A stretch of DNA of 64,000 nt from Octopus vulgaris (lineage: Eukaryota). A program made the position numbers and the translations under genes. The notes below the pieces were generated by a model. The model had not been told where the DNA came from and did no database searches. It was given only the letters and a program-made list of their open reading frames with translations. This document shows positions 59,826 to 64,000 of the stretch, piece by piece; the stretch's first letter is position 1; the number at the start of each line of letters is the position of its first letter. Location of the stretch: positions 6,634,001-6,698,000 of the forward strand of contig OX597824.1 in NCBI GenBank assembly GCA_951406725.2, written 5' to 3'.

Positions 59826-61774
59826 AATGCAAGCATGTATGGATATATGTGTGTGCGTATTTGTGAGTGTGTATATAAATGCAAGCATGTATGAATAAAT
59901 ATATGTGTGTGTGTATATACATGCAAGTATGTATGGATGTGTGTGTGTGTGTGTGTGTGTCAGTGCACATATATAGGTACTGGTGTAGCTGTGTGATAAG
60001 AAGCTTGCTTCCCAACCATATGGTTGGTGGTTCAGTCCCACTAGGTGATACATTGGGCGGGTGTCTTTTACTGTAGCTCCATGCCCACCAAAGCCTTGTG
60101 AGTGGATTGGGATGACAGAAACTGAAAGAAGCCAGTTGCTATTATGTTAAACTGTTGTATGTCCAAATTTGGTCAAACACGGGTTTTTTTTTTCAATATT
60201 TATTTTTTCTAGGTGGCGAGCTGGCAGAATTGTTAACATGCTGGGCGAAATGCGTAGCTGTATTTCGTCTGCCGTTACATTCTGAGTTCAAATTCCGCCG
60301 AGGTCGACTTTGCCTTTCATCCTTTCGGAGTTGATAAATTAAGTACCAGTTACGCACTGGGGATCGATGTAATTGACTTAATCTGTTTATCTGTCCTTGT
60401 TTGTCCTCTGTGTGTTTAGCCGCTTGTGGGTAGTAAAGAAATAGGTATTTCGTTTGTCATTATGTTCTGAGTTCAAATTCCACAAGGGTCTATTTTGCCT
60501 TTCATCCTTTCGGGATCAATAAATTAAGTATCAGTTGCATACTGGGGTCGATCTAATCAACTGCCCCTGCCCCCAACAAAAAATTTGGACCTTGAGCCTA
60601 GAGTAGAAAAGAATATTTATTTTTGCTTGGAAAAGCCAGTTCTTTTGGTCAAACTATCGTATCTCCAGCTGCTTCAGATGCTGAGATATCAAAAGTTGTC
60701 AAAGTGTAGTACAATGGTCTGGCTATGGAATGGTGAAACTATTTTTTCGTTTTCTGAAAATATGTTTTGGACTTACGATACACGTTTGTGTGCGTGTGTG
60801 TGTGTGTGTGTTTTCTATCGGTGCTGCTTGACAAATGGTCTCAGTTTGGTTATGTCCCTGTAACCAAGGACTTCAGCAAAAAGAATCTGGCAGAAACGTT
60901 AGCACGCCAGGCGAAATGCTTAGCGGTATTTCGTCTGCTGCTACATTCTGAGTTCAAATTCCGCCGAGGTCAACTTTGCCTTTCATCCTTTTGGGGTTGA
61001 TAAATTAAGTACCAGTTATGCACTGAGGTCGATAAAATCTACTTAATCCGTTTGTCTGTCCTTGTTTGTCCTCTCTGTGTGTAGCCCCTTGTGGGTAGTA
61101 AAGAAATAAGAATAAGTACTAGACTTGGTAAAAAAACAAAAAACTGTGTCCCAGCATGGCCGTTGCTTAATGATTGAAACGAGTAAAAGATAAAAGATAT
61201 ATATGTGTATGTAAAGTTGTCTGTCTGCCAGTATGTCTATAGCTGTGCATGTATGCATTTTTCTCATGTCTATTTCAGTAAGAGAAATAAAATAGAAAAA
61301 GAGAAGTAAAAAAAAACAAAAAGACTTCCATATTCCGTATGCTGTTTGCGTTACACAAACGTCTACAAAGAAATGTCTTGTATACATATACTTAAATAAG
61401 TATTTCATAAAATGCTGCACCTGCATCGCAATGAGAAAGAAATGCACACAGATGCACACACAGATGTTATGTCAAAGAATCAAAAACAAAAAAAAGCAAC
61501 CACAGAGAGAGACTGTATTGTTTATACAACTGGAAGAATAAGGACATATGAAAACAATTCCAGTTTGTTAAATGCAAGTCTCCACCAAAATATACAGCAG
61601 ATTCTGAAGAATTCTTGAAACAATCATGGACAGAGTAACCGAAGTAGAGACAGGAAACTTGTATAAAAAGGAAAATGGATATCCGGAAATTATGTGTACT
61701 TTAGATGTATTTCTCTTGTTTGTGGATAAACCTTGTATTTCAGGATAATGTGGTATTAGTTGCTGTTGCTGGTT

Positions 61775-62135
61775 TGTTTGTTTGTTGAGCGAAGCGGTCT
61801 TCGTCCCATTTGTCTGTAGTGGGAGAAGTCCGAAACGTGGTGCTTTGCTATTCGTAAGACCCGCAGAAGAGAAAGCAGGTCAACCCACGACGGATGGATG
61901 AATGTGCATCCAGGCTCAGTGGTTGCGTAGGAAGTCGGGGACAAGAAACAGGAAGAAAGAGTGAGAGAAAGTTGGAACGAAAGAGTACAACAGGAGTCGC
62001 CACCACCCCCTGCCAGAGCCTCATGGAGCTTTAGGTGTTTTCGCTCAATAAACACACACAATGCCCAGAGAATCGAAACCGCAATCCTCCGACCACAAGT
62101 CTGCTGCTCTAACCACTGGGCCATTGCGCCTCCGC
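61775..62135 (-). mobile_element. tRNA-derived SINE (family D)
   Basis: Head ggaggcgcaatggcccagtggttagagcagcagac...ggtttcgattc (A and B boxes), unique body, (AAAC)n tail. Confidence 0.75.
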
Positions 62136-62292
62136 TGTTGCTAGTTAACAACTGCTTTGTTCCTGATTGAAAAGACTTATGACCAATGGTGTTCCTCTTA
62201 TACTAGTGATAGAGCATCTAGGACTACATTATTTGAACTCAATATTTACATTATTTACATTGGAAGGCTATGTGTCCTCATCTTGTTTGTTG

Positions 62293-62340
62293 TTACCACA
62301 ATGTTTCAGCTGATTTACTCTCCAGCCTTCATCAGGTGTC
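62293..62340 (-). ncRNA. Inverted, slightly decayed copy of the same hammerhead motif
   Basis: Minus strand reads gacac CTGATGA aggctggagagtaaatcagct GAAA cattgtggt. CpG decay (CGTT to CATT) breaks the helix III palindrome. Confidence 0.6.
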
Positions 62341-62833
62341 TTGGTAGAATTTTGGACCCAACCCTGGGTTCTCATTCCTAAGATATTTTTTTGCTGATGT
62401 TATTATTATTATCATTTATTCAAGGCTCTGGAATCTTGGGGTTAGTAGCCCACGCTCTTAACCATTACGCTATATGCCCATGGGCAATTATAGAGTGAAT
62501 TTTAGGGCTTATAAACCCAACATTTTCCTATCCTTCCTTAATAGCGGTTCCCGTATTCAATTCATATTTGCACCAGGTCTGCTTAGGGGGTTATTGTGTC
62601 TAGTGCAGATATGAATAGTATACAGGAACCAGTATTAAGGAAGGATGCAAAAATATTAGGTTTATAAATTCACTCTATAATTGCTCACGGGCATGATGGT
62701 TAAGAGCATGAGCTATTAACCCCAAGAGTGCAACTTCAATTCTGGGTAGTGCCTTGAATAAATAATAATAATAACATCATCAAAAAAATACCTTAGAAAT
62801 GAGAGCCCAGGGTTAGATTCAGAATTCTACCAG

Positions 62834-62879
62834 GACACCTGATGAAGGCTGGAGAGTATATCAGCCGAAACGTTGTGGT
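62834..62879 (+). ncRNA. Minimal type-I hammerhead ribozyme motif (Penelope-like-element type)
   Basis: gacac-CTGATGA(62839-45)-a-ggctgg/agagtata/tcagcc-GAAA(62867-70)-CG-TT-gtggt. Core is intact, stem II is 6 bp, palindromic AACGTT replaces helix III, GUU triplet, short helix I. Confidence 0.75.
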
Positions 62880-63289
62880 GACAACAAACAAGATGAGGAC
62901 ATGCATCCATCCATTGTAAATTCCTCATCTCCAAAATATAGAACATTATTTTTAAAGGAAGTTTTAGCTTGTGGATTAGTCAGAAGAGGAAAGGCAGCCT
63001 GTGCCCCATTCTTTATCTTTGGGCAGAGACCTAGCAACTTGAAGGAAAGGTAAGACCATAATCTTTCTTATGAGACCAGAGCTCAAGAATTGGAAGATAA
63101 GAAGAGCTTGTAAACTATTTTTTCAGAAGACTTTAAGACTGGAGAAAGCAACTTATGCATGACAGCTACAAGTACCTTATTGCATGCAATACCACAGTCA
63201 TGGTATCGATCAGACTGTCAGACTTTGTTCTAAGTATAACACCATCAATGGTTGCAATGCATTTCATGTTGTTTTAGCTTTTGAATGAT

Positions 63290-64000
63290 GCCACCCTGCT
63301 GGCTAGTCCAGTGGGCCCACATACCATGTGCTGGCTAGGCATGCAGGCCCACATAACCCCTGGTTAGTAGGCAAGCAGGCCCACATATCCCCTGCTGGGT
63401 AGGCAAGCAGGCCCACACACACCCTGCTGGGTAGGTGAGAAGGCCTACATGCCTGCATACCCCCTGCTGGCTAGGCAAGCAAGATACATATCCCCTGCTG
63501 GCTAGGCAAGCAGACCCATATACCCCCTGCTGGATATGTGAGCAGAGCCACATACCCCCCTGCTAGCTAGGCAAGCAGACCCACATACCCCCTGCTGGAT
63601 AGGTGAGCAGGGTCACATGCCCCACTGCTGAGTAGGCAAGCAGGCCCATATACCTCCTGCTGGGTAGGTGAGCAGGGCCACACACCCCCTGTTGAATAGG
63701 TGAGCAAGGCCACATACTCCCTGCTGGTTAGGTGAGCAGGCCCATGCACCCCCCTGCTGGCTAGGAAAGCAGACCCACATACCCCCTGCTGGGTAGGTGA
63801 GCAGGCCTACATGCCTGCATACTCCCCTGCCGGCTAGGCAAGCAAGATACATAACCCTTGCTGGCTAGGCAAGTAGGCTCACATACCCCCTGCTGGTTAG
63901 GTGAGCAGGCCCATACACCCTCCCTGATGGCTAAGCAAGCAGACCCACATACCCTCTGCTGGATAGGTGAGCAGAGCCACATACCCCACTGCTGGGTAGG
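63290..64000. repeat. GC-rich 32-bp minisatellite running off the window end
   Basis: Unit ccacatacccCCTGCTggStaggYRAGCAGGc, about 20 copies with no spacers. Confidence 0.92.

Follow-up and report, generated by a model that had tools for sequence, protein, structure and literature searches.

The 64,000-nucleotide stretch analysed here, referred to as the window, comes from Octopus vulgaris (GenBank assembly GCA_951406725.2, contig OX597824.1, positions 6,634,001 to 6,698,000 of the forward strand). At 62247-62944 of the window lie two head-to-head arms which, aligned within the window, are about 78% identical to each other. These arms are truncated ends of an autonomous Penelope-like element (PLE) of the Penelope/Poseidon type, with an open reading frame (ORF) for a reverse transcriptase (RT) and a GIY-YIG endonuclease. 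The terminal repeat of the element, the pseudo-long terminal repeat (pLTR), carries a head derived from a transfer RNA (tRNA), followed by a hammerhead ribozyme motif. We put a probability of roughly 0.65 on the reading that the locus consists of decayed head-to-head PLE ends and that the tRNA-derived head of the pLTR likely is an internal promoter for RNA polymerase III (Pol III).

Organization of the inverted pair and its parent element

The first-pass annotation of the window had described two arms diverging from a short spacer, with an extent of 62253..62921. The inverted arms were recovered, but the spacer was not: the arms overlap at a CTAG microhomology (62600-62603, no strand), the left arm reaches out to 62247 and the tail on the right runs to 62944. 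The left and longer arm (62247-62603, minus strand) is a 5'-truncated PLE 3' end, made of the ORF tail and the pLTR without a tail extension, as judged by alignment to the natural copy L038 and to family loci. The right arm (62600-62944, plus strand) is a second 5'-truncated copy in the opposite orientation, with the tail. The end of the ORF fills the first ~90-120 nt of each arm. By translation, its last codons lie at 62509-62602 on the minus strand, with the stop at 62511-62509, and at 62602-62667 on the plus strand; the same peptide closes the ORF of longer copies. Both stops fall within a TATA-like TTTATAA, at 62509-62515 (minus) and 62661-62667 (plus).

In the left arm the head is preceded by a six-base leader (62480-62485, minus), of which 62485 corresponds to position -6, the putative 5' end of the family's RNA as deduced from the 5'-end wall in other copies described below. 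The left head (62422-62479, minus) keeps an intact A box, TAGCGTAATGG, at 62462-62472 and an anticodon-like arm at 62451-62439, while a 16-nt deletion has removed its B box. The right head (62689-62755, plus) keeps a decayed B box at 62732-62742, and a 7-nt deletion has taken most of its A box. Each head runs into an (AAT)n tract (62400-62420, minus; 62757-62774, plus). Then follows the ATG (62799-62801, plus; left-arm equivalent 62375-62373) that in full-length copies opens a frame through the hammerhead into the body; its use as a start codon is presumed, in a layout like that of the PAc element of Anolis (Frangieh et al., 2024; PMC11167929, cited here for its accessible parts). The minimal type I hammerhead of the right arm (62834-62879, plus; core from 62839) has the palindromic ACGT, and its helix I pairs over 3 bp before a mismatch. 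That of the left arm (62295-62340, minus; core from 62335) has lost the helix III palindrome, with ACAT in place of ACGT. The right arm ends in a one-sided tail extension of 25 nt (62920-62944, plus), a type described in the available portions of two PLE papers (PMC8557442; PMC11167929), and the first T run to the right of the element is at 62949-62953. The first-pass annotation had already reported this order of TATA-like stretch, tRNA-like segment, (AAT)n and hammerhead, along with the left A box and anticodon-like arm, the decayed right B box and the T run just past the element, all of which were found at the places it gave.

Both arms extend ~100-125 nt upstream of the head, so the pair was copied from the long, ORF-containing RNA. 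It is probably dead, and the locus is not itself a copy of a short Pol III RNA like that of a short interspersed element (SINE). Two subfamilies exist, and the window pair belongs to the rarer one, in which a longer stretch of the head agrees with host tRNA-Arg(TCG) and helix I of the hammerhead is mismatched.

The genome of this octopus (2.8 Gb) was searched for further copies, which yielded no fewer than 2479 candidate hammerhead parts and no fewer than 2648 candidate upstream parts. Genome-wide counts of exact patterns gave 1956 matches for a 34-base hammerhead pattern and 1469 for a 29-base head pattern, with 0 for the controls. Since the 34-base pattern is matched by 10 of 120 copies picked by other means, the family would comprise ~20,000 copies, a rough figure. 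Upstream of the part seen in the arms, other copies run on as an ORF with RT motifs and then a C-terminal endonuclease-type region. One natural copy has an open frame of 569 residues with a match to RVT_1 (PF00078; E 2.7e-6, 27.7 bits, below the curated cut-off of 29.6), and no Pfam GIY-YIG match was obtained on this frame. It is matched by 2923 database proteins, and some of its full-length homologues are annotated with PF01541 GIY-YIG. The single ORF thus has the PLE order of RT followed by a C-terminal GIY-YIG-type endonuclease, with a weak RVT_1 match and the endonuclease assigned by homology; the clade name Penelope/Poseidon rests on this domain order and on likeness to the PAc layout. 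The linkage of family copies to such an ORF bears out the first-pass suggestion that PLE machinery mobilises the family.

Full-length copies have the layout pLTR-body-ORF-pLTR, in which the 5' copy of the 3' end is variably truncated and joined directly to the body, and the reading frame starts at an ATG within the repeat and crosses the hammerhead. The family therefore displays the traits of PLEs: its pLTRs stem from partial tandems and contain a minimal hammerhead, its copies are frequently 5'-truncated with an inverted copy at the 5' side, and its tail is one-sided. An opposite-strand piece of the family lies no more than 1.1 kb upstream in 64 of 91 hammerhead-anchored arms, and the junctions of inverted pairs differ between loci; the palindrome is an insertion by-product. 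Because this anatomy matches published PLEs, palindrome and ribozyme are ordinary for the class: pLTRs, inverted 5' copies and the one-sided tail are known (PMC8557442, in part), as are minimal hammerheads, also as opposite-strand pairs (PMC4209133, in part). For PAc, the accessible text describes an ORF that begins at the hammerhead, internal RT initiation that sets the tail, extension of both strands and protein-assisted cleavage (PMC11167929).

Several derivatives of the family were also observed. A 276-bp derivative (L207, L208, L212, L213, L224, L226) joins the first ~120 body bases to the hammerhead part of the pLTR without the tRNA head; it is arranged in tandem in L208 and L213, in the manner of retrozymes, and the frame is kept over the junction in L212 and L226. 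The internally deleted copies L211, L221, L421 and L437/L438 have 42, 168 or 238 bases of the body fused to the head at -5/-6, and the common junction of L211 and L221 reveals a small non-autonomous subfamily. Other repeats often interrupt the (AAT)n tract of the pLTR (L096, L099-L101, L104, L116, L296), which therefore seems to serve as a landing site for later insertions.

The tRNA-derived head, the hammerhead and the 5'-end wall

Thirty loci, inspected out of 150 scored, were chosen by a foreign endonuclease peptide, and in 26 of them the head directly follows the stop codon, the remaining four ending at or before it (counted by eye). The head is thus not confined to this locus, as the first-pass annotation had anticipated. 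All 30 loci belong to the octopus PLE family, and no headless sister family was seen among them. The column majority of the head scores 47.5 against host tRNA-Arg(TCG), compared with a mean of 10.3 and a maximum of 27.5 in 500 dinucleotide shuffles, and this match is the only peak along a full-length copy, in agreement with the tRNA origin proposed earlier. tRNA-Asn was considered as the parent and set aside, with 41.0 against 47.5 for Arg. As had been expected of a consensus, the family majority has both boxes, an A box TGGCGTAGTGG and a B box GAGTTCGATTCC, which fit the type 2 Pol III consensus. Their likeness to host tRNA-Arg(TCG) is far greater than that of the stems; the boxes have been retained and the cloverleaf lost. 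ARAGORN found no tRNA in the window, none in 30 copies at the default or 90% threshold, six at 80%, and none in 46 loci of relatives.

The family shares with SINE2 elements a 5' head from a tRNA with A and B boxes. All 30 head-anchored loci run on into the (AAT) tract, so that no free SINE with the exact head was seen. A comparison set of 95 related PLE loci from other organisms was assembled, 51 of them with enough downstream sequence, and a comparable head after the ORF was found in 0 of these 51 (best score 27.5). In ORF-linked copies the sequence upstream of the head imperfectly mirrors its first ten bases (-14 to +10), with a C-G/T-A exchange at -13/+9 between the subfamilies. The mirror may have been left behind by the fold-back event through which head and ORF were originally joined.

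The full minimal-hammerhead descriptor found no match among 5000 mononucleotide shuffles of the arm; in the window it matches the two arm sites and nothing else. The predicted cut lies after 62874, the position given in the first-pass annotation. The family majority has a 5-bp helix I, an intact core, an extra A, a 5-bp helix II, the palindromic ACGT and a GUU site, that is, the CUGANGA/GAAA core, helices I and II and NUH site of a minimal type I hammerhead, and the PLE-type assignment made earlier holds for the family. The full descriptor is retained by 29 of 120 copies. Covariation within the family is unusable, because the copies decay neutrally. Among the relatives, the core motif is present in 27 of the 51 loci, and 20 distinct descriptor matches have stems that differ yet are paired, 16 with a palindromic helix III, partly by construction, as the descriptor demands pairing. 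Cleavage of the PAc ribozyme required protein, according to the accessible text (PMC11167929). In one relative (P0003, 55% identical) the N-terminal peptide encodes the hammerhead in the same frame as in the octopus family, a motif found in 1 of 31 long homologues. Animal-type PLEs with hammerheads were also seen in contigs of several prokaryote-labelled assemblies (L405-L419), probably through host contamination.

Indirect evidence for a promoter in the head comes from where copies end. Ninety loci (30 + 60) were drawn from the matches to the hammerhead pattern, following their order in the genome, 60 of them with a detectable head. Numbered relative to the head, 42 of the 60 reach +4; of these, 33 stop between +4 and -20 and nine go on to -42 or beyond (arm-level binomial P 1.6e-20, indicative only, as some junctions were counted twice). 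Ends at -11 to -19 are fold-backs at a GCCC-AC-GGGC palindrome, which places the true limit at -6/-7, 13-14 nt before the A box. Junctions at -5/-6 without a fold-back occur in L130, L243, L285, L211/L221, L421 and L437, which include independent internal-deletion derivatives. Genome-wide exact matches numbered 223 for the fold-back motif and 109 for the ORF-linked motif (30- and 32-base patterns; palindromes partly double-counted). The simplest reading of this wall would be that the template RNA ends at -6/-7, and the wall may be taken as family-level support, from genomic sequence, for the idea of a SINE-like Pol III RNA.

Short copies (82) and ORF-linked copies (74) were compared, and no diagnostic differences were found in the head. 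Since the two sets of heads are indistinguishable, the short copies appear to derive from the autonomous family and not to form a separate SINE lineage.

Proposed transcription from the head and competing explanations

Type 2 Pol III promoters have a characteristic box consensus and a characteristic spacing between start site and A box, and the wall lies at the distance from the A box at which Pol III would begin. In the mechanism proposed here, transcription would start at G(-6) of such a promoter, pass the (AAT)n tract, the hammerhead and the tail, and stop at the first T run in the flank. The promoter in the 3' pLTR would thereby yield a SINE-like RNA of ~290 nt plus flank. The RT would then begin internally on this RNA, at either of two positions near the tail, as described for PAc in the available text (PMC11167929); because initiation of the PAc type is internal, a PLE protein could copy pLTR RNA. 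After copying to the 5' end of the RNA, the RT would snap back on the GCCC-AC-GGGC palindrome or join a second cDNA, and thousands of ~290-nt SINE-like and inverted copies would result. As to its origin, a PLE may have inserted into a tRNA-derived SINE or tRNA retrocopy, within its (AAT)n tail, and retained it as a promoter. The preference of the PAc endonuclease for ATT (PMC11167929, accessible part) suggests that the ancestor entered such a tail.

Several results weigh against a Pol III promoter in the head. The 5' ends are smeared from +8 to -8 with no single preferred base, and the 33:9 ratio of stops to read-through is nearer 33:11 when two read-through arms missed in the count, L140 and L244, are added. 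The wall is overlapped by a hairpin, with a predicted -8.7 kcal/mol in L307. As 11 tRNA types were compared, the isotype of the parent is tentative. Neither the Rfam hammerhead model, a check proposed in the first-pass annotation, nor the Rfam tRNA model gave a match in window positions 60000-64000 (E<=5), in 16 loci of the family (E<=1) or in two better copies (E<=10). No subfamily specific to short copies, which would be a sign of TATA-less source copies, was found among the 82 and 74 heads. Three raw RNA runs and one contig set were compared with copy L118, in which the ribozyme is deleted; the strands were equally represented, opposite-strand joints were many, and no piled-up starts or ends were found on L118 in the three runs. 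The RNA reads are therefore probably copies embedded in other transcripts, and a threefold step in RNA depth at the head mirrors copy number and gives no evidence of a start site. Finally, TTTATAA lies 24-30 nt upstream of the putative start, and the known pLTR promoters of PLEs have a start site and an intron within the pLTR (PMC8557442, in part).

The last two points belong to the strongest alternative, in which the start at -6 is real but driven by RNA polymerase II (Pol II), through TTTATAA or an internal Pol II element, with the tRNA head as the passenger of an old SINE. TTTATAA stands at the canonical distance for a TATA motif, and the ORF needs translation, which is normally cap-dependent. 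Copies that begin at -6 lose the TATA motif, however, and the retention of the internal boxes together with the loss of the upstream TTTATAA favours Pol III over a TATA-dependent start. Among 60 partly overlapping loci, three body-joined forward 5' pLTRs reach the start of the head; L229 (-7) and L433 (~-3) stop there and only L206 goes further. As these 5' pLTRs stop at the wall without the TATA motif, progeny of full length would depend on a promoter inside the element. The A and B boxes, moreover, have been kept far closer to host tRNA-Arg(TCG) than the stems. On balance, a Pol II start is rather unlikely.

A second alternative dispenses with a start site: RT working on long RNAs would stall or snap back at the hairpin of -14 to +10, and opening of the hairpin would add palindromic bases at -6. 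For L307, this hairpin is predicted to be among the strongest of the region on both RNA and cDNA; fold-backs are abundant, and among 29 ORF-linked copies the -13/+9 pair is C-G in 20, T-A in four and T-G in three. A cDNA passing -8 would, however, carry the 2-nt bulge of the ORF-linked form, and this bulge is absent in 62 of 62 fold-back reads (some counted from both strands), which counts against an origin from the longer hairpin. Predicted hairpins as strong or stronger at about -84, -320, -350 and +28 are read through with no pile-up of ends, and fold-backs are missing from many of the ends at -7 to +4. Stalling at the hairpin is therefore quite improbable.

Still less probable is that the head acts as a processing signal, with RNase P or a similar enzyme cutting long transcripts on its 5' side and freeing a short RNA. 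Ends at +1/+2 in L124, L236, L125, L126 and L143 would fit such a cut, but the leader bases -2 to -7 are present at most ends, and the head lacks the cloverleaf fold, in keeping with the ARAGORN results on 30 copies. The view of the first-pass annotation, an independent non-autonomous palindromic SINE-ribozyme or retrozyme family, can hardly be upheld: most copies are indeed short, begin at the head and lack the ORF, and 276-bp tandem hammerhead derivatives occur, but the window arms start in ORF sequence as truncated autonomous ends, junctions vary by locus, short and ORF-linked heads cannot be told apart, and the tandem derivatives have no tRNA head.

An internal Pol III promoter in the head thus remains the preferred reading, and it raises a bolder proposal, that Pol III makes the whole 2.6-kb RNA. 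In that case the captured tRNA promoter would drive an RNA purged of TTTT terminators, uncapped and translated with the help of the hammerhead, while the promoter in the 3' repeat would spawn tens of thousands of SINE-like copies moved by the Penelope enzyme. Across its 2643 columns, the column majority is free of TTTT; base content predicts 81 in natural copies, where 28 are seen, and 334 in relatives, where 405 are seen, and codon shuffles give 12 observed against 27 expected (non-independent copies). Markov nulls for the absence of TTTT give P values of 0.022, 0.062 and 0.188, GGGG is also absent from the majority, and five of 40 related families are equally low in TTTT. These three results weigh against Pol III transcription of the whole element, and the absence of TTTT was rejected as proof and is suggestive only. 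Ribozyme-assisted cap-independent translation has a precedent in RNA viruses (PMC13725137, in part), but the first ATG precedes the predicted cut and would itself be lost as a start upon cleavage. Transcription of the entire element by Pol III is accordingly a possibility that we regard as doubtful.

Three features elsewhere were recorded alongside. In the window, a minisatellite array of 32-33-base units occupies 63256-64000 and reaches the window end, and at ~61775-62135 there is a second short inverted pair, whose tRNA-like head, near 62040-62135 on the minus strand, is a different one. A cluster of about 35 tRNA-Asn motif matches occupies 51 kb at G000:C20:52876629-52927511.

Relation to known systems and significance

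The closest counterpart is PAc of Anolis, of the Penelope/Poseidon clade (Frangieh et al., 2024; PMC11167929). It shares the RT with a C-terminal GIY-YIG, the ORF start at the pLTR hammerhead, the optional tail, both-strand extension and partial tandems. The accessible text on PAc mentions no tRNA head with A and B boxes, whereas the octopus head precedes the hammerhead and marks the 5' wall. The minimal hammerheads described in PLEs share the extra base before helix II, G10.1-C11.1 and the palindromic helix III, as well as opposite-strand pairs 100-700 bp apart from truncated PLEs; the available text makes no mention of tRNA, octopus or Pol III (PMC4209133).

A small-RNA-derived Pol III promoter in the terminal repeat of a retroelement is shared with TRIMp3 (Cassandra, Helenus, Ajax), according to the accessible part of Kojima (2024; PMC10886601). 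These are non-autonomous long terminal repeat (LTR) elements with a primer-binding site (PBS), a polypurine tract (PPT) and target-site duplications, and their autonomous partners were argued to require Pol II; the octopus head, in contrast, sits in an autonomous PLE. The octopus family has an autonomous PLE ORF and variable pLTR ends instead of direct LTRs, PBS and PPT, and so falls outside TRIMp3. The Schistosoma repeats SM-alpha and Sj-alpha also combine an apparent Pol III promoter and a type I hammerhead in a short repeat, but they are tandem and non-autonomous, without an ORF, whereas the octopus unit is the pLTR of an autonomous element (PMC6765202, in part). Non-LTR retrozymes have been described, in the portion available, as PLE derivatives (bioRxiv 10.64898/2026.07.22.740005), hammerhead pLTR derivatives comparable to the 276-bp tandems. 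They are head-to-tail tandems of hammerhead units; the window pair is inverted, with tandem derivatives elsewhere. Nor does the head mark a non-autonomous SINE2 lineage of its own, as it is fixed in ORF-bearing copies and no bases distinguish short from long copies.

The octopus SINEs OK, OR1 and OR2 reportedly have tRNA-derived heads (Ohshima and Okada, 1994), Arg-derived in OR1 and OR2, a likeness taken from their description.

No published description of a tRNA-derived promoter in a PLE pLTR was found, in a search that did not extend to Repbase, Dfam, SINEBase, subscription papers or bioRxiv supplements. The accessible parts of two cephalopod repeat papers give class-level counts only (PMC13282606; PMC8967140), and no relatives were found in a first metagenome scan or a viral scan. 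The octopus PLE family itself may well be catalogued already as a Penelope or SINE entry. What is new is the family-wide tRNA-derived head in the pLTR; the inversion, the hammerhead within the ORF start and the one-sided tail are published PLE traits.

The 5' wall maps the 5' end of a PLE template from genome data alone, and it shows where PLE inverted arms are made, a step for which the available text of the cited papers gives no explanation. If the head is indeed a Pol III promoter, the family would be the PLE counterpart of Cassandra and Helenus, in an autonomous element, and SINE-like repeats would be spawned directly by the terminal repeat of the very element that mobilises them, without parasitising a long interspersed element (LINE). 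If the ORF were also made by Pol III, it would be a natural example of a Pol III transcript that encodes a protein, and cap-independent translation assisted by a ribozyme could be tested on it.
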